Shown one piece after another: positions 2,871 through 44,036 of a stretch of 44,212 bases of DNA. Source of the stretch: Escherichia phage Henu5_1; sequence record PQ133007; one strand, written 5' to 3'. Numbering within the stretch: position 1 is the stretch's first letter; every line of letters starts with the position of its first letter. Position numbers and translations under genes: made by a program. The notes under the pieces are model-generated. The model did not search any database and was not told the DNA's origin. It worked only from the letters and a program-made list of their open reading frames with translations.

Positions 2871-3026
2871 AAAATCCGGGATTGCAAAATACACGGCAGC
2901 ATGTCGCGGATTGCGGTCGTCGCTGAACTAGGCAACCAATGCGAGATGCAGAAAGCGGTGTGGAAAATGCAGTTTGCAGTTGCAACGGATAGCGATCGAC
3001 TTTTTCATGCGCATGATTAATATTGG

Positions 3027-3055
3027 TTGCATTCGTGCCAGCACCCTGCTAGATT
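3027..3055 (+). promoter_or_regulatory. Putative sigma70-like promoter (TTGCAT-17-TAGATT) overlapping two ATTGGTTGCA motifs
   Basis: -35 TTGCAT lies inside ATTGGTTGCAT; second motif copy overlaps -10/+1; about 25 nt upstream of GGAGG RBS of ORF 3083. Confidence 0.4.
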
Positions 3056-3082
3056 GGTTGCACACCAACAGGAGGGCGGAAC

Positions 3083-3262
3083 ATGAAAACCGAAATGGTT
3101 GATAAGCACGAAATCAAGATCGGCGATACGGTAGTCCACAACGGGGAGCTTCGCACTGTGTGCAGGCGAGCGTTTAGCATCGATGAATTTATGGGCCTGC
3201 TACTTTGGGGCGACAGCTATCGTTTAGGGCATAAACTGGTTGAGAGGGTTACGGAACTATGA
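3083..3262 (+). CDS. Small hypothetical protein (59 aa, below ORF-track threshold)
   Basis: ATG at 3083 preceded by GGAGG RBS; hand-translated MKTEMVDKHEIKIGDTVVHNGELRTV...; stop overlaps next start (ATGA at 3259). Confidence 0.5.
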   Translation: MKTEMVDKHEIKIGDTVVHNGELRTVCRRAFSIDEFMGLLLWGDSYRLGHKLVERVTEL

Positions 3263-3459: not shown

Positions 3460-3729
3460 ATGACCCGTAGACGCGCAAAACAGCTTTCGTGGCATATCCC
3501 CCTGCATTGCATACGAATATGGGCTAAGAATGCGAATGCGGGGGACTCTGTGTACTGGTGCTATCGCGACGACGTTAAGCCGTTGACGCAGACTCGCTAC
3601 TTGCACCAGTTCGCCGCGCAACATGATTTCTATGTGCGGACCTCCTTGCAACCAATGGGGATCCGTATTACATTACGCCGGAAGCCCGCAGTCGAGCGGG
3701 TAGGCAAACACTGGAGACTGAGCAAATGA
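3460..3729 (+). CDS. Hypothetical early protein
   Basis: 89 aa track ORF; AAGAGG RBS upstream of ATG 3460. Confidence 0.6.
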   Translation: MTRRRAKQLSWHIPLHCIRIWAKNANAGDSVYWCYRDDVKPLTQTRYLHQFAAQHDFYVRTSLQPMGIRITLRRKPAVERVGKHWRLSK

Positions 3730-4626: not shown

Positions 4627-4706
4627 TATGTGGCGGTAGTCTGGCGGCCCTGGTGCTGTTGGCGTCGGTTATTAGTCTGGTTAAATACCTATGGGGCAGA
4701 TTATGA
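4605..4706 (+). CDS. Putative 33-aa hydrophobic membrane peptide
   Basis: ATG 4605 preceded by GAAGGGG RBS; hand-translated MLYVFAVVCGGSLAALVLLASVISLVKYLWGRL; stop overlaps ATG 4703. Confidence 0.35.
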   Translation: MLYVFAVVCGGSLAALVLLASVISLVKYLWGRL

Positions 4707-4990
4707 TTCATGATGTGATTTATTGGTTTGGTTTGATCTGGGGACTGTGCCTGCTTACTGTGGTGCTGTTGTGCCTCCTGATGTTCGTCGTATGGCCCGC
4801 CGTGGAAGCCGCCAGCATTACCCGCATGACGTTCGAAATATACAAGCGCCGTGGAATCACGGAGCACCCGACCAGGTTGCGCATGTGGTGGCTGTGGTAT
4901 CGGGATATGATAGGCGGGCGAACATTCGAAGCCGTCCGATCATCCGGGTGGGAGTGGAAAGGCGTCGGCAAGTGGTCCGTTTTCGATTAA
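4703..4990 (+). CDS. Membrane protein (single predicted TM helix)
   Basis: Track ORF 4691-4990; ATG 4703 preferred because it overlaps upstream stop (ATGA); hydrophobic N-terminal segment. Confidence 0.5.
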   Translation: MIHDVIYWFGLIWGLCLLTVVLLCLLMFVVWPAVEAASITRMTFEIYKRRGITEHPTRLRMWWLWYRDMIGGRTFEAVRSSGWEWKGVGKWSVFD

Positions 4991-5008
4991 TTATGCAAGC
5001 GTGATATA

Positions 5009-5042
5009 GTCCCAGTGAGCTAAAACTTACTGGGACTTTTTT
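5009..5042 (+). terminator. Rho-independent terminator
   Basis: 9-bp stem AGTCCCAGT/ACTGGGACT followed by TTTTTT, directly after stop at 4990. Confidence 0.6.
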
Positions 5043-5333
5043 ATGGATAAGCTAAACGAGTGGCTATTCGCCCTGGCATGTCTGGCGGGTGGCTTCGTAG
5101 GCGCACGCATTCATGGTGAGGCTACGAAGGGGCCGCTAAACTTCGTTTTGTATGTGGTAGTCGGCTTCCTGTGTGCCATATTTGGCGCACCGGCTATTGC
5201 CGAGTGGGCTGGTTTGTCGGGTGAGCGCACTGTCGCCGGTTTGGGCTTCGTAACCGCAATCTTCTGGATGCCAATCGCCGACCGGATCAGGGAGACTATT
5301 GCGTCGTTCCGACTTCCGGGGGGTGCAAAATGA
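5043..5333 (+). CDS. Holin-like membrane protein
   Basis: 96 aa with 2-3 hydrophobic helices, immediately upstream of lysozyme gene. Confidence 0.5.
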   Translation: MDKLNEWLFALACLAGGFVGARIHGEATKGPLNFVLYVVVGFLCAIFGAPAIAEWAGLSGERTVAGLGFVTAIFWMPIADRIRETIASFRLPGGAK

Positions 5334-5575
5334 TTATCTCCGTCCTGTTGTTTGTTATCATCGGGGCTTCGTCCCTGTTTAACGTGTATGCGCCGTCCGT
5401 CCAGGATGGCATTTTCGGTCGGGTGCTGTATCTGCTAACGGCAATGATCTGTATTATCGGACTGTTGCAAACAGGAGACGTATCTGATACCACCTGGACC
5501 GCGTTAATCTGGCTGTTTGCATTGCGCACCCTGCGTAATGCTGTTTTGAATGGGGTAAAACATGCGATTCAGTGA
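5330..5575 (+). CDS. Small membrane protein (holin/antiholin candidate)
   Basis: 81 aa, 2-3 hydrophobic segments, GGGGGG RBS, overlaps neighbours at both ends. Confidence 0.45.
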   Translation: MIISVLLFVIIGASSLFNVYAPSVQDGIFGRVLYLLTAMICIIGLLQTGDVSDTTWTALIWLFALRTLRNAVLNGVKHAIQ

Positions 5576-6053
5576 CAACGGTCTAAGATTCACGGCAGCA
5601 TGGGAGGCTTTCAGCCCGGTGCCGTATTTCGCGACCAAGAAAGAGCAGGCCCGCGGCCTGTACACCTGGGGTTATGGTCATACAGGCACTAATCCGCCTC
5701 GAAGCATTACCCGCGAGGAGGCGCTGGCACTGCTCAAGCGCGATGTGGCGTATGCCGAGGACTGGGTTAGCAAATACGCACATCCGAGCATTAACCAGGC
5801 GCAATTCGACGCGCTGGTGGATCTGGTAATCAACGCCGGTCCTGGTCCGATCGTACCTGATGACGTCGCGAATGATTTCGATGACGCTGTGCGGTTGGGC
5901 GACTGGGCGAAGGTCCGTGCTACGCTGCCGCTGTTCCGCAAGCAAGGCGGGGAAGTGCTTAAGGGTCTGGTACGCCGTGCAATCGGCAGACAGGCGTTGT
6001 TTGATGGTAAGCAGTGGGACGTTGCCGAGCGAATCGGTCGTAACGCAGCATAA
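5562..6053 (+). CDS. Endolysin (phage lysozyme, GH24-like)
   Basis: 163 aa; N-terminal region with E...GYGHT lysozyme-like motif; position after holin candidates. Confidence 0.7.
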   Translation: MRFSDNGLRFTAAWEAFSPVPYFATKKEQARGLYTWGYGHTGTNPPRSITREEALALLKRDVAYAEDWVSKYAHPSINQAQFDALVDLVINAGPGPIVPDDVANDFDDAVRLGDWAKVRATLPLFRKQGGEVLKGLVRRAIGRQALFDGKQWDVAERIGRNAA

Positions 6054-6069
6054 TACGAGGGGACACGAT

Positions 6070-6483
6070 ATGTTGAAAAGTATTCTTGATCATAATGCGG
6101 ACGCGCTTGCCGCACTGGCTAAAACCGAAGATCCTGACGCACGCGCTATCATCGCGGACACTATCAGCCACGCGGGGGTCTTCAATGCGAAGTTACCCAG
6201 CCCGCCGGAAAGTAAGCCGGTGGCAAGTGCGACCATAACCATCACCCCAGTGTCCGCCGCAGTTGGCGCGAAGGCCGCCGCTTCAGTTGCCGTCCTGCCA
6301 TCCGACGCAACTAACAAGGCCGGGGCGTGGGTGTCTGCAAACCCAGACTGTGCGGCAATCAATCAGGCTACCGGCGAAATCACAGCAAAATCGGAGGGTA
6401 GCGTCCACATCTTCTGGGTGGCATCCGATGGAGGCGGGGCGATGGCGTCCGCCATCTTCACCGTAACGGGAGCCGCAGAATAA
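6070..6483 (+). CDS. Ig-like (Big_2-type) domain protein
   Basis: In-frame ATG 6070 with GAGGGG RBS inside track ORF 5860-6483; C-terminal beta-rich segment resembles bacterial Ig-like domain. Confidence 0.5.
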   Translation: MLKSILDHNADALAALAKTEDPDARAIIADTISHAGVFNAKLPSPPESKPVASATITITPVSAAVGAKAAASVAVLPSDATNKAGAWVSANPDCAAINQATGEITAKSEGSVHIFWVASDGGGAMASAIFTVTGAAE

Positions 6484-6492
6484 AACCCAGCA

Positions 6493-6517
6493 AGCCCGGT
6501 TAATTCCGGGCTTTTTA
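6493..6517 (+). terminator. Rho-independent terminator
   Basis: AGCCCGG-TTAATT-CCGGGCT followed by TTTTT. Confidence 0.6.
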
Positions 6518-6521
6518 TTGC

Positions 6522-6552
6522 TTGACTTGCAACCAACATAGACGCCATACTG
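6522..6552 (+). promoter_or_regulatory. Putative promoter (TTGACT -35) with TGCAACCAAC motif in spacer
   Basis: TTGACT at 6522-6527; weak -10 CATACT; motif copies at 6527-6537 and about 6553-6561. Confidence 0.35.
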
Positions 6553-6580
6553 CGACCAATCAACGAGAGGAGTAATAAAG

Positions 6581-6661
6581 ATGGCACGTAAAGATATTTG
6601 GGTATTAGCGATCTGGACCACCGCGGCTTTTATCGGCATGGTTATTTGCGAATTGATATAG
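6581..6661 (+). CDS. Possible 26-aa hydrophobic peptide
   Basis: ATG 6581 with GAGAGGAG RBS; hand-translated MARKDIWVLAIWTTAAFIGMVICELI; very short, low confidence. Confidence 0.25.
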   Translation: MARKDIWVLAIWTTAAFIGMVICELI

Positions 6662-6674
6662 CCCGCCGCCATAC

Positions 6675-6700
6675 GGACCGTGGTATATTGTCCACGGTCC
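6675..6700. promoter_or_regulatory. Perfect 9-bp inverted repeat GGACCGTGG-N8-CCACGGTCC (operator-like)
   Basis: Palindrome with TATATT in the 8-nt spacer, 23 nt upstream of HTH-phosphoesterase gene start. Confidence 0.4.
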
Positions 6701-6722
6701 ACTAATCAGGAATTAATTAAAT

Positions 6723-7865
6723 ATGCACCCGCAAACTAAAATTACCGATGAGCAATTGATCGCAGAAATTCAGGCAGGGACTACGGTTAAAGAGATTGCG
6801 AAGAAATACGGGATTGCCCTGCGCAATGTCTATATGCGGAAAGCCCGCCTATCGAAAAAAGGAATTGGGCACGGCAACGATGCCGTAATCCGCAAGCGCG
6901 TTGCCGATGGCTTCGGCGTTAAGCGCGTATCGGCCCTGGTGCGCGGCAATGGCGAAGAGGTCATGTCGTGGGTCATCACTGAGCAGGACAAGGAGCGCCA
7001 ACTCGAAGCTATGCGCGCTGTTGTCGATGGCATGAACAGCGAAATCACACCGGCAGCGCCAGTAAAAGCCCCGCCAGTCCCGATCCAGGCGCTCGACTTG
7101 CTAAACCTGTACACCGTGTCAGACTTCCACCTGGGCATGTTGGCATGGGGCGAGGAGACTGGAGAAGACTGGGATATGGCGATCGCCGAAGACCTGTTCT
7201 ACCGCTGGTTTGTCGAAGCCTTCGCCCGCGCACCGGACGCAGGCACTGCCGTGATCAATATCCTCGGCGATATGGCGCACTTTGATAGCCTTGATGCCGT
7301 CACCCCCGCCAGCGGGCACGTACTGGATGCCGACACTCGATACCAGAAGTTGGTCCGCTATATGATACGCATGGTGCGCAACGTCGTAGACCTGGCGCTG
7401 CAAAAACACCATAAAGTCAAACTGCTAATCGTCCAGGGTAATCATGACGAGTCGGGCATGATTTGGCTTGCTGAGATGTTCAACACGCTGTACGAGAACG
7501 AGCCGCGCGTCGATGTGGATACGTCCCCGGACGTCTACAAAATGGTGCAGCACGGTAAGACCACGCTGTTTTTCCACCACGGGCACAAAGCGCGATTCGA
7601 TGCTATCGAGCAGGTTATGATCGCTAAATTCAGACAGGCGTTCGGGTCGAGCGAATACAGCTACGCGCACGTAGGTCATTTGCACCACCAGAAGATTGTC
7701 GAGTCTCGCAACATGATTGTTGAACAGCACCGGACGCTCGCAGCGAAAGACGCCTACGCCAGCCGCGGCGGCTGGATGAGCGGTCGCAGTGCCAACGTCA
7801 TTACCTACAGCGCCAACTACGGCGAAGTAGCGCGCTTAACCATTAGCCCGGAAATGTTGAAGTAA
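6723..7865 (+). CDS. HTH domain fused to calcineurin-like metallophosphoesterase
   Basis: N-terminal HTH-like TVKEIAKKYGIALRNVYMRKARL; phosphoesterase motifs DFH, GDMAHFD, GNHDE, HHGH, GHLHH. Confidence 0.6.
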   Translation: MHPQTKITDEQLIAEIQAGTTVKEIAKKYGIALRNVYMRKARLSKKGIGHGNDAVIRKRVADGFGVKRVSALVRGNGEEVMSWVITEQDKERQLEAMRAVVDGMNSEITPAAPVKAPPVPIQALDLLNLYTVSDFHLGMLAWGEETGEDWDMAIAEDLFYRWFVEAFARAPDAGTAVINILGDMAHFDSLDAVTPASGHVLDADTRYQKLVRYMIRMVRNVVDLALQKHHKVKLLIVQGNHDESGMIWLAEMFNTLYENEPRVDVDTSPDVYKMVQHGKTTLFFHHGHKARFDAIEQVMIAKFRQAFGSSEYSYAHVGHLHHQKIVESRNMIVEQHRTLAAKDAYASRGGWMSGRSANVITYSANYGEVARLTISPEMLK

Positions 7866-7870
7866 CGGCA

Positions 7871-7911
7871 ATAAGTAAGCCCCAGCCTGCCGATTTGGTG
7901 GGCTTTTTTGT
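7871..7911 (+). terminator. Possible weak terminator
   Basis: Short GC stem with large loop followed by TTTTTT. Confidence 0.35.
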
Positions 7912-7993
7912 GCCTGTTATAATCCACCTTAGATGGCAGGGCCGTCTCTTATGTTGCCGATGGTCGGCGCATATGAACAAAAGGGCTTATATC

Positions 7994-8545
7994 ATGGCAG
8001 AAATCAAAGTTAAGGGCCGACGCGCCAAACTGGACGGACGAGTAGCAGTAACCCCGCGCCGTAAACCAGGCGAGCAAACCGAGCACACCAATCTTGGACC
8101 TGAAATCGAGTACGGAAAGCGCCGTAAAGGCGGCAAATGCGGACGCCCTACTGACTACCGATCCGTTTACTGCGACCAGCTTCGCCGCTATTTTGCCGAC
8201 GCCGACGCCTGGCGGGTCAACTACTCCGATAAAGGCGCTGCGCAAGTAATCCCTCGCAACAAAATGCCAACCTTCGGTCGATTTGCCGCTGAAATCGGCG
8301 TAGGCGTCGCCTGCCTGTATCGATGGGCGCGTGCGCATGAGGAGTTTGCCGAGGCGATGGCGGACGCAATGGAACTGCAGAAAACCTTCCTGATGGAAGC
8401 TGGCGGCGTGACCATCGCGGCGGGCTTCGCTACATTCCTGCTTAAAGCAAACCACGGCGTCCGCGACGATGTACCGCTGGATGACGACGAAGATGATAAC
8501 GGTGACGTAGTTGTCGAACCTTCCGGCAAAGGCCAGGGTGAATAA
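7994..8545 (+). CDS. Terminase small subunit (putative)
   Basis: Immediately upstream of and overlapping terminase large subunit; HTH-like segment; acidic C-terminus; ATG 7994 chosen over track start 7895 on RBS grounds. Confidence 0.5.
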   Translation: MAEIKVKGRRAKLDGRVAVTPRRKPGEQTEHTNLGPEIEYGKRRKGGKCGRPTDYRSVYCDQLRRYFADADAWRVNYSDKGAAQVIPRNKMPTFGRFAAEIGVGVACLYRWARAHEEFAEAMADAMELQKTFLMEAGGVTIAAGFATFLLKANHGVRDDVPLDDDEDDNGDVVVEPSGKGQGE

Positions 8546-9941: not shown

Positions 9942-11462
9942 ATGACCGTTAACGTTGACAACCAGCACCCGCTTTATGCGCGCATCGCGCCAGAGTGGAA
10001 AATGATCCGTGATTGTGTAGCAGGGGAGCGCGCCGTGAAGGCGTGCGGCCCATTATACCTGCCACACCCCGCAAGCGGCGACACCACCGACCCTAAATCG
10101 CGTGCGCGTTATAAGGCGTATAAGCAGCGCGCCGTCTTCCTGAACGCCACCGCCCGAACCCTTAACGCACTGTTAGGCGTGGCCTTCGCCAAGCCGGTGA
10201 GTATGGACCTTTCCGGGGCAATGGCTGACCTGATTGATGACGTAGACGGCAGCGGGATGCCGCTGGCGCAACTCCTGCGCGGCGCTATGTCGGAAGTGCT
10301 GCAATCGGGCCGCGCTGGCTTTATGGTGGACTACGACCGCCAGGCTAACTTTGATGAACTGGGTAACGTAGTGCCGCAGACAGCAGCTGAAATGGCGACA
10401 CATCGCCCGCTTATCCGCCTGTATACGGCTGAACAGATCATCAACTGGCGGCAGACCCACGGCGTCGATACGCTAATTGTGCTGAAGGAAACGGACGAAA
10501 TCAGCACTGAAGACCCGGACGACTTCGCAAACCACGAAGTTACGATCTGGACCGAGCTTCGCATGATTAACGGTGCGGCACACGCCCGCCGCTGGTTTTA
10601 CAACGCGGACACGTCCGAAGTGCAAATGGACTTGCCGCGGGGCTTCACCCGCACCGACCTTGTACCCTTGGTGGATGCTTCAGGTAATGCGCTAACTCAA
10701 CTGCCATTTTGCTGGTGTGGCGCGGTGGACAACAACGCGACACCGGACGCCGCACCGCTGGCGGATATTGCATCCATCAACATTAAGCACTACAACGCCG
10801 AAGCAGACGTCGCCGAGATTGCGCACATTGTGGGCCAACCTACACTCATTGCGACCGGTCTTACCCAATCATGGGCTGATAAAAACCTGAAGGGGGGCAT
10901 CGCACTAGGCGCGACTAAGGGCGTTATCCTTGGTCAGAACATGGACGCTAAACTGCTTCAGGCTGAGGAGAGAAACCTGTCAGTTGCGCTGTGTGAGCGG
11001 CGCGAGTTGCAAATGGCTAAACTGGGCGCGGCCCTGGTTGAGAAGGGGACCGCACCTAAGACGGCAACTGAAGCGGCCTACGATGCGCAGACTGATAACA
11101 GTATCCTGTCACTGATTGCCGGTAACGTTGAGAAAGCTTTCAACCGTGCGCTGCAAATCGTCAAGCTGTTCACTGGCGACACCGCAGATCAACGCGTAAC
11201 GCTGAATAAGTTCTACACCGAAATCACGGTTGACGCACAGCTTATGACCGCGATGATGGCGGGTGTGCAGACCGGTACGGTCCGTCTCGCGGACTTTATC
11301 AAGTGGATGATGGCCCAGGGCGTCATTGATGACTCGCAAACCGTTGAGCAGGTGGAAGACGAATTGCGAAATCAGAATCCATTGCCTCAAATGTCCCCGG
11401 ATGCGGTAGAATCTACCGAAGAAGACCCGGACAAGGTAGCGGACAATGGCGAAGACAATTAA
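9942..11462 (+). CDS. Portal protein
   Basis: 506 aa directly after terminase large subunit; acidic C-terminus; AAGGAAA RBS. Confidence 0.7.
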   Translation: MTVNVDNQHPLYARIAPEWKMIRDCVAGERAVKACGPLYLPHPASGDTTDPKSRARYKAYKQRAVFLNATARTLNALLGVAFAKPVSMDLSGAMADLIDDVDGSGMPLAQLLRGAMSEVLQSGRAGFMVDYDRQANFDELGNVVPQTAAEMATHRPLIRLYTAEQIINWRQTHGVDTLIVLKETDEISTEDPDDFANHEVTIWTELRMINGAAHARRWFYNADTSEVQMDLPRGFTRTDLVPLVDASGNALTQLPFCWCGAVDNNATPDAAPLADIASINIKHYNAEADVAEIAHIVGQPTLIATGLTQSWADKNLKGGIALGATKGVILGQNMDAKLLQAEERNLSVALCERRELQMAKLGAALVEKGTAPKTATEAAYDAQTDNSILSLIAGNVEKAFNRALQIVKLFTGDTADQRVTLNKFYTEITVDAQLMTAMMAGVQTGTVRLADFIKWMMAQGVIDDSQTVEQVEDELRNQNPLPQMSPDAVESTEEDPDKVADNGEDN

Positions 11463-12549
11463 TCAATATATGGCGGATCGAATGATTCGCCGACACATTT
11501 TCACCCAGCGCCTGAGTAATGACCAGGCGCGAAGGGTGCTGTCCATGTGGGAGAAGTTCCGGCCTACATTACTGGGGAAGCTGACCGAGTTGCTTGATGG
11601 CAAATCGTCAATGAATAACCGGGCACTTTCCACCCTGCTAACGCAAATCGACAAGACCGTTAAAGCAGAATTGCGCACCGAGTTTAAGGCGTTGGCTGAA
11701 AGCCTTCAGGAGTTTGCCGACACCGAGGCCGATTATCTCGCCGACACATTAACGGCAGCGATCCAGCCGGCGGTCGCCGTACCTGCGGTCGAGGTGGTTG
11801 GCGTAGTGACCGGTGCGCAGATCGCAGCGACGGCTATGAAAAACCCGTTCCAGGGTAATACGATGATGCAATGGCCTGACTCACTTTCTGAGTGGACCAG
11901 GACGCAGATCGGTAATCAGGTGCGAGCGGGATTCATCCAGGGCAAGCCAACGATGGAAATTATCGCGGACGTGAGGCGCGCGCTAGGTGGTCGTAGTGCG
12001 CAAGCTATCTCGAGCGTTGTTAAGTCCGCAGTCAACCACTATGCGGCTACCGCCCGCGAACTAATGGTAAAAGCAAATGACGATATTCTCGAAGGTCGCC
12101 AATGGTTATCTACATTGGACACGCATACTTCTCCCATGTGCCAGCTACGCGATCGCCTGTTTTATCCGGTTGATGTTACTCCCGATACGAAAGGGAAGCG
12201 CGGCGGGAAAGTGGTGGCTGGATCACAATATGGCGCTGGTCCGGGCAAGTTGCATTATTGTTGCCGGTCTACGGAGACGTGGAAGGTTAAAGGCATGGAA
12301 GATTGGCCCAGTGGTAAGCGTCCGGCACTGAAGGCTGACGCGGGTCGATTGCTGAGTGAGCAGGTCGACGCGCAGACTGATTTCTTCTCATGGGTGCAGC
12401 GCCAGCCGCGCCATATCCTGGAAGAATTATACGGAGTGCAACGCGCCGACCAGATTATGCGCGGCGTGAAAGTGCCAAAGATGTTTACCGATTCTGGCGA
12501 ACTGATGACTATTGCGCAGCTTAAAAACCGGGGGTTATGGCGTGATTAA
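11446..12549 (+). CDS. Head morphogenesis / minor capsid protein (Mu gpF / SPP1 gp7-like)
   Basis: 367 aa, position after portal; assignment by gene order and general resemblance. Confidence 0.45.
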   Translation: MAKTINQYMADRMIRRHIFTQRLSNDQARRVLSMWEKFRPTLLGKLTELLDGKSSMNNRALSTLLTQIDKTVKAELRTEFKALAESLQEFADTEADYLADTLTAAIQPAVAVPAVEVVGVVTGAQIAATAMKNPFQGNTMMQWPDSLSEWTRTQIGNQVRAGFIQGKPTMEIIADVRRALGGRSAQAISSVVKSAVNHYAATARELMVKANDDILEGRQWLSTLDTHTSPMCQLRDRLFYPVDVTPDTKGKRGGKVVAGSQYGAGPGKLHYCCRSTETWKVKGMEDWPSGKRPALKADAGRLLSEQVDAQTDFFSWVQRQPRHILEELYGVQRADQIMRGVKVPKMFTDSGELMTIAQLKNRGLWRD

Positions 12550-12871
12550 ATATGCAGCGATTGGACTGGGTGTCGGTCTGGCGGTAGGATTCTGGCTAGG
12601 TGACTCATATCGCGCTGGCGTAGTGGCGGAGGCGGCGCAAAAAGCGCAAGCCCAAGCCCAACGGCAGCAAACTAAAGTTGTTGAGCGCTCCGTGCAGGCC
12701 GAACAGGCCCGCGACGTGGAATACCGGACTATCACGAAAGAGGTTGTAAAATATGTTACGCGCCCTAACCGCCCTGATTGTAGTTTTGATGCTGAGCGCG
12801 TGCGGATCAAGCAACGTGCCGTTGATGCCGCTAACGGAGTCGGCACTGCGACCGCCGTGCAAGTTCGATAA
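12542..12871 (+). CDS. i-spanin candidate (Rz-like)
   Basis: GTG 12542 with GGGGG RBS; N-terminal TM IKYAAIGLGVGLAVGFWLG followed by Q/A-rich coiled-coil-like segment. Confidence 0.45.
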   Translation: MIKYAAIGLGVGLAVGFWLGDSYRAGVVAEAAQKAQAQAQRQQTKVVERSVQAEQARDVEYRTITKEVVKYVTRPNRPDCSFDAERVRIKQRAVDAANGVGTATAVQVR

Positions 12872-12983
12872 CCCGTCTGCGGACCCCGACGAGGATTTGA
12901 TGATTGACGTGAAAAATATGGAATGCGGGGCGAAGCTAAGGGCGCAGGTGCTGGAGTTGCAGCAAATAATTAAGGGGCCGTAA
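12753..12983 (+). CDS. o-spanin candidate (Rz1-like lipoprotein), overlapping i-spanin gene out of frame
   Basis: Signal peptide with lipobox LSAC, proline-rich mature region; starts inside 12542-12871 in another frame. Confidence 0.5.
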   Translation: MLRALTALIVVLMLSACGSSNVPLMPLTESALRPPCKFDNPSADPDEDLMIDVKNMECGAKLRAQVLELQQIIKGP

Positions 12984-12994
12984 TGGCCCCTTTT
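12972..12994. terminator. Bidirectional terminator hairpin
   Basis: AAGGGGCC-GTAAT-GGCCCCTT, with flanking T-run on the plus strand and A-run (T-run on minus); sits between convergent genes ending 12983 and 12997. Confidence 0.55.
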
Positions 12995-12996
12995 CG

Positions 12997-13761
12997 TTAT
13001 CGCGGAATGCCGCAAATCTCGTTGAGTGTTTTCACGTCCAGCGCCACTGCCGTGGATTTTGGCTTGTCCGGGTATGGGATGAATTGCTCAACTTCAGGCC
13101 ATGCCTTAATCAGCTTCTTGTCAGTATTGTGCAGGTCCAATACACCGGTAACGGTGAGTTTGAACGAATCATACTTCGCGCGCAACTCGCGACGGGCCTT
13201 GTCGTTGCGGTCCAGGCGCTTACAGAAGTCATGGTCCGCCGGGTAGTCTACGCGACCGCGTGGGAGATATATCGGCAGCGCTTTCCCGTCCTCGTCCACT
13301 TCGCACACTGACGCAAGCATAACCTCTTCGAACCCCGGTACGATATCGCCGAGATCGGGGGATAGCTTATTCATGTATTTATATTCCCAGTATCCGCGAT
13401 GTACGCGGTATCGGTAGCCGTCACCGCTCAAGGACAAGGTGCGAACATTTCCGCCTGCGTTGATTTCGAAAGCGGCGTCGTAAACGCTGCCGATACTTTT
13501 CGGGCGGTCGGTGTTATAACTATATGTCGCCTTGTTGGAGTAGACGCTGACGCCGTACATCTGCGACTGGTCATCGCGGATTAACAGGATATGCTCGCGT
13601 AGCGCGGCGAATGTGCGAATGCCGTCCGGCATACAGTCTAGCGTGATTGCGTACGCCAGGTCGCGAGAGTCCATCATAATTGTTTTGGCTTCGGTAGCGA
13701 TTTCGTGGTCGCGCAGGATGTTAGCCAGGATCTGATTTTTAATGTCTTTCGTCAGTCTCAT
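12997..13761 (-). CDS. Hypothetical protein, reverse-oriented gene inside the structural module (moron candidate)
   Basis: 254 aa from ATG at 13761 (GAGGA RBS) within track ORF 12997-13806; own promoter upstream; no recognisable motif. Confidence 0.6.
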   Translation of the reverse strand: MRLTKDIKNQILANILRDHEIATEAKTIMMDSRDLAYAITLDCMPDGIRTFAALREHILLIRDDQSQMYGVSVYSNKATYSYNTDRPKSIGSVYDAAFEINAGGNVRTLSLSGDGYRYRVHRGYWEYKYMNKLSPDLGDIVPGFEEVMLASVCEVDEDGKALPIYLPRGRVDYPADHDFCKRLDRNDKARRELRAKYDSFKLTVTGVLDLHNTDKKLIKAWPEVEQFIPYPDKPKSTAVALDVKTLNEICGIPR

Positions 13762-13790
13762 TTTTATGTCCTCGTTGTTGGTGTGCAACC

Positions 13791-13819
13791 AATATATTGC
13801 AACCAACCCCGCAATGCAA
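13791..13819 (-). promoter_or_regulatory. Putative promoter (TTGCAT-17-TATATT) with GCAACCAA motifs
   Basis: Minus-strand -35/-10 read from reverse complement; two motif copies at about 13784-13808. Confidence 0.4.
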
Positions 13820-13908
13820 GCGAATTTTGCGATTATTTTTATCGCTGATAATATTAAGGCGTGAAGTCAAGCGGGTGGCCCGCTTTGCCACAATCCCAGG
13901 GGGATAGC

Positions 13909-14610
13909 ATGAAACTTACTAAAGCAGAATATGACGCGTTGCCAGAGGGCATGAAGGCTTTATTTGTTGCCGATGGCGATGGGTATAAATCAACGTTCAT
14001 GACCGCCGAAGAAGTACAGGCGGAGATCAAGGGTCTGAAAGACAACAACGCGAAGCTGGTTAGCGAGAAGAAAGCAGAAGCCGAACGTCGCGCCGAAGCC
14101 GAGCGCCTTGCGAAAGAGAAAGAGGAAGCCGCCGCGCGCAAAAATGGCGACCTCGAAGCGATCGACAAGTCCTGGAAAGATAAGTTTGCGAAACACGAAG
14201 CAGACACATCGGGGAAAATCGAAGCCTACCGCAAGCAGATCCACGACCTAACCATCGGCAGCGCTGCCAAAGATTTGGCCTCGAAGCTGTTCGGCAAGAA
14301 TGCTGGCATCATGCAGCGCCACGTTATGGACCGCCTCACTCTGGAAGACGGCGAAGACGGCAGCCTGAAAGTGCGAGTATTGAAGGACGGCAAACCATCC
14401 GCGCTGACTATGGACGAACTGGAAAAAGAGTTCCGTAGTAACGCCGATTTTGCATCTGTCCTGGCTGGCACGCCAGCCGGTGGTGCTCCGAGCAAACCGA
14501 CGCAGGTCGTAGAAGATGTGAAGTCAAAAATCACTATGGGCCACAGCTTCGGTATCACTGACTTGACGAAACAGGCCGGGGATATCATTGCTAAAATGGG
14601 CGACGAGTAA
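13909..14610 (+). CDS. Scaffolding protein (putative)
   Basis: ATG 13909 with GGGGGA RBS; highly charged coiled-coil-like sequence (KAEAERRAEAERLAKEKEEAAARK); directly upstream of major capsid gene. Confidence 0.55.
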   Translation: MKLTKAEYDALPEGMKALFVADGDGYKSTFMTAEEVQAEIKGLKDNNAKLVSEKKAEAERRAEAERLAKEKEEAAARKNGDLEAIDKSWKDKFAKHEADTSGKIEAYRKQIHDLTIGSAAKDLASKLFGKNAGIMQRHVMDRLTLEDGEDGSLKVRVLKDGKPSALTMDELEKEFRSNADFASVLAGTPAGGAPSKPTQVVEDVKSKITMGHSFGITDLTKQAGDIIAKMGDE

Positions 14611-14616
14611 GCAGGC

Positions 14617-14640
14617 CGCCCGCGAAAGCGGGCGATTTTG
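14617..14640 (+). terminator. Terminator/attenuator between scaffold and capsid genes
   Basis: CGCCCGC-GAAA-GCGGGCG followed by ATTTTG. Confidence 0.5.
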
Positions 14641-14707
14641 CGAGCGCGTAAATCTAAGGTAACATTAACGGCACTGGGCGAATGCTCACAACTCAAAGGA
14701 TTCTAAT

Positions 14708-15802
14708 ATGTCATTAACAGTGTTCCAGCGTAAACTCGTCACCGCGGTTACGCAAATGATCCCCGACAACCTGAACGTGTTCAACGCTGCCGCTAATGGC
14801 GCTGTTGTTCTCGGCACCGGTGAAGTGCTGAAGGACGTTGTCGAGAAAATGTCCGTAGGCTTGATCGCCAACCTCGTTACCGACCGTAACGCCTATGCCC
14901 CTGTCGGTACTCCGGCGACCGCAAAAGTGCTGGCGCGTATGCTGACCAACTCGGTTAACCTTTCCGCGAAAGTGGGTCCGGTAGCAATCACTAAGGCCAT
15001 GATGGCTAAGATCGAAACCAACGTTAACAGCGTTGCGGCTGAGATTGCGGCACAGGCTACTCAAGCGATTATGCTGCACTACCTTAAAGCGGGTATCGGT
15101 GCTGGCAAAGCGGCTATCGAAAGCAACACAGCGGCAAACTACACCCAACCGGCGCGCGTTGACGGCGTTGGCGGTCGTACCTTCCCGACCCTGGCAGACT
15201 TCCCGCTGGCGGCTTCTAAGTTCGGCGATCAGGCGTCTTTGATTAAATCCTGGTTTATGGACGGCGTTACCTGGGCAAACTTCATCGCTTACCAGGCGCT
15301 GCCATCTGCCGAGCAGGTATTCGCGATCGGCGATCTGCAGGTAATGGGCGATGGCCTGGGCCGCCGTTTCATTATCTCGGATGCCGCTGCCGATGCCATG
15401 GGCGCGGGTAAAATGCTGGGCCTGGTCCCTGGCGCGGTTGCAGTTACCACCAACGGCCTTGATATGCTGGCGCAGGAAAAAGGCGGTAACGAGAACATTG
15501 AGCGCTGGTGGCAGGGCGAGTTCGACTTCAACGTAGCGGTTAAAGGCTATCGTCTGAAGGCGTCCGCTCGTACTCCGGTCGAAGGCATTCGCTCGTTCAA
15601 ACTGGACGACATTACCACCAAGGATAACTGGGAACTAGACCAGGGCCAGGTAGACAACGCTCCGGCAACCGTGCAGGATGTTGGCGGCGATAGCGATACT
15701 AAAGGCCGTCGTAAGACCCAGGCCGCGCAGGCAGTGCCGACCCGTCACATCAAGGAAACCGCGGGCGTACTGGTTACGCTGACTGCTACCACCGCGTCGT
15801 AA
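14708..15802 (+). CDS. Major capsid protein
   Basis: 364 aa after scaffold gene, followed by strong terminator; AAAGGA RBS. Confidence 0.7.
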   Translation: MSLTVFQRKLVTAVTQMIPDNLNVFNAAANGAVVLGTGEVLKDVVEKMSVGLIANLVTDRNAYAPVGTPATAKVLARMLTNSVNLSAKVGPVAITKAMMAKIETNVNSVAAEIAAQATQAIMLHYLKAGIGAGKAAIESNTAANYTQPARVDGVGGRTFPTLADFPLAASKFGDQASLIKSWFMDGVTWANFIAYQALPSAEQVFAIGDLQVMGDGLGRRFIISDAAADAMGAGKMLGLVPGAVAVTTNGLDMLAQEKGGNENIERWWQGEFDFNVAVKGYRLKASARTPVEGIRSFKLDDITTKDNWELDQGQVDNAPATVQDVGGDSDTKGRRKTQAAQAVPTRHIKETAGVLVTLTATTAS

Positions 15803-29858: not shown

Positions 29859-29887
29859 AGTATTGCACCGCTCAACCAAGAATGCAA
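29859..29887 (-). promoter_or_regulatory. Putative promoter (TTGCAT-17-AATACT) with ATTGGTTGCAT motif
   Basis: -35 formed by motif copy at 29882-29893 read on minus strand. Confidence 0.4.
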
Positions 29888-29908
29888 CCAATTCATGAGG
29901 ATTCAGCT

Positions 29909-32892: not shown

Positions 32893-32916
32893 TGCAACCA
32901 ACCTATTGGTTGCAAG
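32893..32916. promoter_or_regulatory. Palindromic double motif GCAACCAA-N4-TTGGTTGC
   Basis: Two motif copies as a perfect inverted repeat overlapping the 3' end of the HAD-like gene, upstream of gene 32837. Confidence 0.5.
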
Positions 32917-34557: not shown

Positions 34558-34586
34558 AATATAATGCAACCAATCTAGTTATGCAA
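34558..34586 (-). promoter_or_regulatory. Putative promoter (TTGCAT-17-TATATT) built on two ATTGGTTGCAT motifs
   Basis: -35 inside motif at 34581-34592; second motif 34564-34574 overlaps spacer and -10. Confidence 0.5.
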
Positions 34587-34590
34587 CCAA

Positions 34591-44007: not shown

Positions 44008-44036
44008 ATATTAGATTGGTTGCAGAAGGGAGTCAA
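44008..44036 (-). promoter_or_regulatory. Strong sigma70-like promoter (TTGACT-17-TAATAT) for the minus arm
   Basis: Near-consensus hexamers with 17-bp spacer containing TGCAACCAAT; about 200 nt upstream of ATG 43811. Confidence 0.5.

Follow-up and report, generated by a model that had tools for sequence, protein, structure and literature searches.

The gene nmad5 was named and studied in the Dhillonvirus phages PhiSMA8 and PhiSMS22 (Yamashita et al. 2025, Commun Biol 8:290, PMC11846954). Mutants that escape the KAP-NTPase Tmn carry the substitution K216E in its product (numbering of the 254-amino acid protein), and the equivalent lysine-to-glutamate exchange arose independently in the two phages. 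Reverting K216E restored Tmn sensitivity. A phage with nmad5 deleted was viable and still restricted by Tmn. The gene could not be cloned and is apparently toxic. The protein was called a DNA-modification enzyme on the strength of its Pfam name. A separate anti-Tmn protein showed allele specificity, and Tmn also blocked phage T1 (PMC11846954). The present analysis concerns the reverse-oriented 254-amino acid gene at 12997..13761 of Escherichia phage Henu5_1 (sequence record PQ133007), which is certainly the Dhillonvirus nmad5 orthologue. The window is the whole stretch of 44,212 nucleotides that was analysed.

A second described setting of the family is thymidine hypermodification. The family name stems from phage YuA, in which an Nmad5 protein (gp15, E=4e-56) is encoded inside a thymidine-hypermodification cluster and adjoins a 5-hydroxymethyldeoxyuridine (5-hmdU) DNA kinase helical-domain protein, a radical S-adenosylmethionine enzyme, a pyridoxal phosphate enzyme and a deoxyuridine monophosphate hydroxymethylase. 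Such clusters are known from the Pseudomonas phages M6, YuA and SN1, and YuA gp15 is a bona fide Nmad5; the window has no cluster enzymes near nmad5. For M6, every step of the synthesis of 5-(2-aminoethyl)deoxyuridine (5-NedU) was reconstituted in vitro with gp51–gp54, and the Nmad5 homologue was not used (Lee et al. 2021, PMC8989533). In the M6-type gene order, this homologue is the next gene beyond gp55.

The pL operon of phage lambda carries the genes ral, sieB and ea10 between N and cIII, an early, dispensable and mosaic region. In this accessory slot, HK542 has a canonical Nmad5, as do 72 of 77 lambdoid prophage loci from IMG/VR (80 loci, L020–L099, were returned, all of one lambdoid lineage, and were used for this statistic only). 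The lambda pL accessory proteins have no sequence or fold similarity to Nmad5, and the Dhillonvirus nmad5 differs in being a separate unit inside the head cluster. Morons, a concept from lambdoid and HK97 genomics, are independent promoter-gene-terminator units inserted between conserved genes. The nmad5 locus is moron-like as a single, non-essential gene with its own promoter and terminator between conserved late-operon genes. Unlike a moron, it is fixed at its site across the genus and distant relatives, shows no compositional anomaly, is reverse-oriented and has its promoter set in common with core DNA-metabolism genes.

In the window, nmad5 forms a single-gene leftward unit (promoter region 13819–13791, coding sequence 13761–12997, terminator 12992–12972) that interrupts the head cluster, with the spanin genes on one side and the scaffold gene on the other. 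This position is held throughout the wider Dhillonvirus-like clade. Orthology to nmad5 of PhiSMA8 and PhiSMS22 is indicated by genus, position, length and residue numbering: these phages belong to the same genus, their gene lies ‘near the capsid gene’, and the 254-amino acid form is that of PhiSMA8. Lys-216 is present in the window protein in the context NTDKKLIKAWPEV. The gene does not appear to be a morphogenesis gene and would be transcribed with the DNA-metabolism operons, probably by the host RNA polymerase. We favour the explanation, to which we give an even chance, that Nmad5 is a non-catalytic intracellular factor made with DNA-metabolism genes and acting by partner binding at the interface of DNA metabolism and host defence.

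The nmad5 transcription unit

The following features define the unit:

12997..13761, minus strand: nmad5 coding sequence, 254 amino acids, stop codon TAA at 12997–12999 (open reading frame list, PF18757, PHROG 1965, orthologues and substitution rates)
13769..13773, minus strand: ribosome-binding site GAGGA, 8 nucleotides upstream of ATG 13761 (read from the sequence, kept in relatives)
13791..13819, minus strand: putative promoter with −35 TTGCAT (13819–13814), a 17-nucleotide spacer and −10 TATATT (13796–13791) (comparison with other sites and relatives)
13806–13798 and 13792–13784, minus strand: two TTGGTTGCA boxes flanking the −10 hexamer, a candidate operator
12972..12992, both strands: predicted bidirectional intrinsic terminator hairpin (terminator scan positive on both strands; folding)

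The open reading frame list contained a longer minus-strand frame at 12997–13806 with a TTG start and 269 amino acids. This start was dropped. ATG 13761 is the true start, because the GAGGA site lies 8 nucleotides upstream and because M-R-L-T, the conserved N-terminus of every homologue, begins exactly there. The sign of the AT skew reverses over 13000–13800, as expected for opposite-strand coding. The gene has a GC content of 53.3% versus 54.8% for the window, with a local GC profile of 0.52–0.55.

A generic sigma-70 scan of 12000–15000 called no promoter; the nmad5 −35 hexamer matches at three of six positions only. Only the comparison with relatives and with further sites of the window revealed the putative promoter. 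Its region is near-invariant in SECphi4 and BF9, and the same architecture is present in EP23 and in the distant metagenomic relatives L101–L104. These comparisons suggest that 13791–13819 is a functional promoter of nmad5.

The 9-mer TTGGTTGCA has 12 exact copies in the window versus 0.36 expected. They are located at 3023–3062 (plus), 3647–3655 (minus), 6528–6536 (minus), 13784–13806 (minus), 29883–29891 (minus), 32893–32914 (both strands), 34565–34590 (minus) and 44016–44024 (plus). The majority sit at promoter-like sites, often paired around the −10 hexamer. The common layout is TTGCAw, 7–9 nucleotides, TTGGTTGCA and TAnnnT, often followed by GGTTGCA. The box just 5′ of the −10 hexamer is invariant across eight aligned promoters, and layout and box are kept before the nmad5 cassette even where Nmad5 identity has dropped to 37–45%. 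Besides the nmad5 promoter, these promoter-like sites precede the following genes:

44016, plus strand: primase operon downstream
3054, plus strand: small-gene operon leading to lysis genes downstream
32901, minus strand: 191-amino acid gene downstream
34573, minus strand: ligase-like protein, Dam methylase and HAD phosphatase downstream

Transcription of nmad5 together with DNA-metabolism operons is suggested because the TTGCAw/TTGGTTGCA/TAnnnT layout is common to both and because homologues reside in early operons elsewhere. On this comparison, the nmad5 promoter would belong to the DNA-metabolism class and not to the morphogenesis class. The TTGGTTGCA boxes may be an operator for a regulator; they resemble an operator or promoter element common to genes across the phage, namely the primase, small-gene/lysis, Dam/ligase-like and nmad5 units. 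A search for a Dhillonvirus transcriptome found none. The leader TTGGTTGCACACCAACA(A/G)..GAGG..ATG is near-verbatim in nmad5 (13784–13762, minus strand) and in front of the 59-amino acid gene 3083–3262 (3054–3085, plus strand), and includes a small inverted repeat, TTGGT/ACCAA.

On the minus strand, the hairpin 12972–12992 has a folding energy of −18.7 kcal/mol (z −3.7); the plus-strand values are −18.2 kcal/mol and z −2.7. It is predicted to end leftward transcription of nmad5 as well as rightward transcription of the portal, head morphogenesis and spanin genes. The stop codon of the spanin gene Rz1 sits in the loop of this shared terminator.

The original prediction, made from the letters of the window, had described a reverse gene of 254 amino acids with its own promoter at 13791–13819 and a bidirectional terminator, surrounded by plus-strand morphogenesis genes. 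The reverse-oriented reading frame with its own signals is a real observation: the gene is borne out by the ATG 13761 frame, the GAGGA site, the AT skew and a ratio of nonsynonymous to synonymous substitution rates (dN/dS) of 0.12. The promoter proposal agrees with the conserved TTGCAT-N17-TATATT arrangement and the terminator proposal with a hairpin call on two strands, both as sequence predictions. Every flanking gene is indeed on the plus strand, but on its left the unit directly adjoins the spanin genes Rz and Rz1, which are not morphogenesis genes.

Family membership and predicted structure

The window protein matches PF18757, ‘Nucleotide modification associated domain 5’ (Nmad5), over its full length (E=5e-59, 200.2 bits versus a 27-bit cut-off; residues 1–253 correspond to model positions 1–206). 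A second match is PHROG 1965, a group of unassigned function; none was obtained with NCBIfam, PADLOC or Rfam. At E<=1e-3, an exhaustive profile search retrieved 823 clusters (50% identity). Most of these proteins have about 200 amino acids, and the family clusters match the N-terminus of the query and residues from about 165 to 254. Domain fusions were not seen: the best 150 matches of the exhaustive search have at most 253 amino acids, and the word-indexed matches carry PF18757 only. The window protein is likewise a stand-alone single-domain protein, but it is transcribed against a head operon instead of inside an early operon. In comparison with a typical 200-amino acid member it is about 50 residues longer, with an enlarged central beta-domain.

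Window protein and family have in common an N-terminal R-L-T-x-x-I motif, a central GG beta-hairpin and an L-N-x-x-x-G-[LI]-P tail. Near-invariant residues are T213, L217, W221, P222, E223, L246 and N247. All signature motifs are present in the window protein, namely R2-L3-T4, T213...E223 (T-x-x-[KRQ]-L-x-x-x-W-P-E) and L246-N247...G251-I-P253. The position of Lys-216 is occupied by K, R or Q in 125 of 141 family members, and the lysine is invariant in 36 Dhillonvirus cluster representatives.

An AlphaFold2 model built with a 141-sequence alignment reached a mean predicted local distance difference test score (pLDDT) of 89 and a predicted template modelling score (pTM) of 0.82. The model predicts N-terminal helices, a central beta-sheet, a long helix (178–209), a short helix-turn with the WPE motif, a flexible linker and a C-terminal helix. 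It has no relative in the PDB, and Foldseek against the PDB with a first model (pLDDT 66) also found nothing. Sequence searches of the PDB with 9- and 141-sequence profiles gave chance matches only (DsbC with E 0.5; others with E>0.07). Foldseek against BFVD retrieved uncharacterised Nmad5 proteins only (E 3e-29 to 1e-5, probability 1.0). The family alignment contained no conserved net charge and no catalytic-looking set of residues. Nucleic-acid binding via a basic helix was considered and dropped: the basic residues within 177–254 are specific to Dhillonvirus and not conserved in the family. Nothing indicates a known catalytic fold or a nucleic-acid-binding surface.

Distribution, cassette variation and selection

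The window is an Escherichia coli Dhillonvirus. Over this region, its DNA is 93–95% identical to that of about 150 Escherichia and Shigella phages, including EP23, SSL-2009a, HH3, SECphi4 and BASEL phages. Of about 158 matching phage records, about 145 have an orthologue in the same place with 85–95% identity (tblastn); the proteins of EP23, HH3 and PS2 are 94–95% identical. Among the matching records, truncated copies were present, and a clean absence of nmad5 was never seen. The metagenomic relatives L101, L102 and L103/L104 have Nmad5 proteins with 37–45% identity and the same gene order: small terminase, large terminase, DUF4055 portal, a 367-amino acid protein, a small gene, the reversed Nmad5 cassette, scaffold and capsid. 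The more distant L008, whose portal protein is 28% identical, carries eight reversed genes, Nmad5 among them, as a cassette flanked by the portal and Mu-F genes. This cassette (5437–8276, plus strand) also encodes a protein with the N-terminal domain of a dGTP diphosphohydrolase (MazZ-like).

Two records stand out. ‘Campylobacter phage A144’ (MG065648.1, 35 kb, unannotated) encodes an Nmad5 94% identical to that of the window and looks like a mislabelled or contaminating Dhillonvirus. In P-GXEC-L2P5 (PQ843332.1, 88.6 kb) nmad5 is present twice, as would be expected if the assembly were concatenated.

The slot between nmad5 and its promoter varies. It is empty in the window, SECphi4 and BF9. 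A 109-amino acid gene (PHROG 24635) occupies it in HH3 (L019, 2802–3131, minus strand) and JL1 (L018, 2632–2961). In EP23 it holds a 170-amino acid gene (L005, 3343–3855, minus strand) with weak similarity to the central domain of the DNA polymerase III beta-clamp, assigned to PHROG 3007, which is labelled RusA-like. The ribosome-binding-site sequence CAACAACGAGGA is duplicated on either side of this insert. The window also encodes a 170-amino acid protein, downstream of the 34586 promoter; the two have no similarity. Some distant relatives have an extra gene downstream of Nmad5. The moron-like variable elements are the companion genes, and nmad5 is the constant gene of the cassette.

Disrupted alleles include a 74-amino acid stub in JL1 (L018, 3001–3225) and metagenomic forms of 155, 299 and 107 amino acids (P0041, P0042 and P0194). 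The 155-amino acid allele is a truncation and the 107-amino acid allele a C-terminal fragment. In the 299-amino acid form, the C-terminal third of the protein and the terminator are lost, and the frame continues into the antisense strand of the spanin region.

Across five genomes, dN/dS is 0.12 for nmad5 (dN 0.053, dS 0.43) and 0.03–0.05 for the flanking head genes (dN about 0.01, dS 0.25–0.29). The dN of nmad5 is thus 4–5 times that of its flanking genes. Variation is concentrated at residues 46–135, and residues 1–20 and 205–254 are invariant in Dhillonvirus. nmad5 is functional, under selection and dispensable. It evolves faster than the adjacent genes and is not a recent insert. The lysate proteome of Dhillonvirus EE09 comprised 24 phage proteins; CDS28–30 and CDS34–36 were detected, the nmad5 orthologue CDS32 was not.

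The classification as a moron or accessory gene in the original prediction holds in part. An independent unit is present, and accessory status is supported by the viable deletion, the truncations and the absence from the EE09 lysate proteome, but the gene is neither sporadic nor foreign in composition. The sporadic presence across relatives expected of such a gene is contradicted by about 145 Dhillonvirus records and the distant relatives that carry nmad5. The same prediction named a conserved structural protein at the same position in relatives as the finding that would speak against it. Conservation at the same position is what was found, for a protein that is not a structural or assembly protein. 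It had recognised no motif, and profile searches gave full-length matches to PF18757 and PHROG 1965. A role against host defence was among its candidates, and the Tmn escape by K216E provides such a link. As a lead for an undescribed function the gene came too late, having been named and studied in Dhillonvirus in 2025: nmad5, its family and the Tmn link are already known.

Genomic contexts of homologues

In HK542 (L003, 5695–6318) and the 72 lambdoid loci, Nmad5 is encoded by the first gene after the antiterminator N; cIII, kil, gam and bet/exo, or erf/abc2, follow. These lambdoid prophages are enterobacterial and include Shiga toxin (Stx)-converting phages, in which the Nmad5 gene is often unannotated; a mosaic of differing small genes lies behind it. 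Other homologues are located between a YqaJ exonuclease and RecT (L013), in a Guernseyvirinae early operon with exonuclease, annealase and polymerase (L004), after ArdA and a methylase (L015), beside methylases (L012), after HD, YAcAr and NADAR genes (L007), or after ThyA, dihydrofolate reductase, dUTPase and kinase genes (L011). Co-occurrence with modification-pathway genes is limited to the YuA/M6 type; the lambdoid, Guernseyvirinae, Dhillonvirus and other contexts are without them. Many phages whose DNA is unmodified carry homologues in early operons. The common denominator of these contexts is an early operon of DNA metabolism, recombination or anti-restriction, and not DNA hypermodification.

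Function of Nmad5

As a partner-binding factor, Nmad5 would be made together with the DNA-metabolism genes. It would bind its partner via the invariant C-terminal module, which consists of T213-x-x-K216-L217-x-x-x-W221-P222-E223 and the L246-N247-x-x-C-G-I-P tail. The fast-evolving central beta-domain (about 46–135) may tune specificity, and the protein would act where phage DNA metabolism meets host defence. The mutants suggest that K216E alters an interaction rather than abolishing function, because Lys-216 is part of the most conserved motif of the family, is invariant in Dhillonviruses, and its exchange is not mimicked by the deletion. Several points weigh against this explanation. The timing class is read from promoter similarity and homologue context only, and the binding partner is hypothetical. 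A fold without relatives is compatible with a new enzyme, in which R2, T213, E223 and N247 could be catalytic, and toxicity on cloning suits an enzyme and a binder equally. Near-universal presence and strongly conserved termini are unusual for counter-defence genes, which are usually patchy. Wild-type Nmad5 gives no protection against the tested Tmn allele (PMC11846954).

The published label implies a DNA-modification enzyme, or an obligatory subunit of one, with Tmn sensing the resulting modification. In its favour, thymidine-hypermodification clusters such as that of YuA gp15 gave the family its name, some homologues adjoin DNA methylases or nucleotide-metabolism genes, and the operon of the Dam-like methylase in the window has the same promoter type. 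This methylase is, however, the single modification enzyme found in the window, and no hypermodification genes lie near the Dhillonvirus nmad5. A canonical Nmad5 comes first after N in 72 of 77 lambdoid loci, the M6 5-NedU pathway was rebuilt with gp51–gp54 alone (PMC8989533), and Nmad5 has neither a known catalytic fold nor a conserved set of catalytic residues. If Tmn sensed a mark made by Nmad5, the deletion should escape, which it does not (PMC11846954). An enzymatic role is improbable in our view, and the annotation ‘DNA modification enzyme’ is probably wrong. Even less probable is that Nmad5 itself is the trigger sensed by Tmn and that K216E removes the recognised surface. Independent lysine-to-glutamate escape mutants in two phages and the sensitivity regained on reversion would fit, but the nmad5-deleted phage is still Tmn-sensitive and Nmad5 is therefore not the sole or necessary trigger (PMC11846954). 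Tmn also blocks T1, and no Tunavirus was among the organism names listed for the tblastn matches, in which T1 itself was not checked. A structural or accessory role in head assembly is hardly credible, even though the gene sits between head-morphogenesis/spanin and scaffold genes in the whole clade and between portal and Mu-F genes in L008. It lies on the opposite strand with a promoter of the DNA-metabolism class and its own terminator, its product is absent from the EE09 lysate proteome although neighbours on either side were detected, it can be deleted (PMC11846954) and is truncated in JL1, and homologues elsewhere are located in early operons far from structural genes.

A dedicated counter-defence inhibitor, for example of KAP-NTPase Tmn variants, overlaps with the partner-binding explanation. 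K216E would then retune the inhibitor to the tested Tmn allele. The genetics resembles a gain of function, since the point mutant escapes and the deletion does not, and the separate anti-Tmn protein is allele-specific (PMC11846954). A non-essential gene with a promoter of the DNA-metabolism type and a fast-evolving central domain would suit such an inhibitor, as do homologues beside ArdA, NADAR, Lar, Gam and Abc2 in early accessory regions. On the other hand, nmad5 is near-universal and fixed in position within its clade, whereas anti-defence genes are typically patchy. An invariant motif including Lys-216 across 823 clusters and many hosts points to a conserved target rather than a variable immune protein. 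Activity in trans is hypothetical, the support being genetic only: K216E escapes and the deletion does not. This narrower role is possible but doubtful.

The partner-binding explanation has a bolder form, which we regard as tentative and rather unlikely. Nmad5 may be misnamed and the founder of a fold-novel family of binders (823 clusters), whose invariant module docks on a conserved bacterial target; charge reversal at Lys-216 would redirect it to neutralise Tmn. If true, Nmad5 would be a general, evolvable scaffold for counter-defence or host takeover, kept constant in the Dhillonvirus-like clade while the rest of its reverse cassette varies. The family is a large phage family, present in coliphages that are therapeutic candidates, in Stx-converting prophages and in Pseudomonas phages, and the label ‘DNA modification enzyme’ is spreading in genome records and papers. 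Knowing the partner of Nmad5 would explain Tmn activation and evasion and guide phage engineering.

Neighbouring genes in the window

The genes on either side of the nmad5 unit, and a candidate promoter in the spacer, are:

9942–11462, plus strand: portal (DUF4055)
11446–12549, plus strand: head morphogenesis protein
12542–12871 and 12753–12983, plus strand: overlapping spanin genes Rz and Rz1, the latter with lipobox LSAC (PHROG Rz-like spanin, E=1e-35 and 2e-26; EP23 annotation)
13827..13854, plus strand: candidate divergent promoter for scaffold and capsid, TTGCGA-N16-TAATAT, with a preceding TG as in an extended −10 (read from the sequence, region invariant in relatives)
13909–14610, plus strand: head scaffolding protein (PHROG 206, E=3.5e-51; ATG 13909 kept in relatives)
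14708–15802, plus strand: Gp13-like major capsid protein

The spacer between nmad5 and the scaffold gene has 147 bp, is almost invariant among Dhillonviruses and contains back-to-back divergent promoter candidates. With the candidate scaffold promoter and the nmad5 unit, the head genes would therefore be split into two transcription units. A conserved GC hairpin, AGCGGGTGGCCCGCT, is located at about 13869–13884 in the leader of the scaffold gene (13827–13908, plus strand). Holin and endolysin are encoded at about 4691–6053, about 6.5 kb away from Rz and Rz1, the spanin genes embedded in the head-gene cluster.

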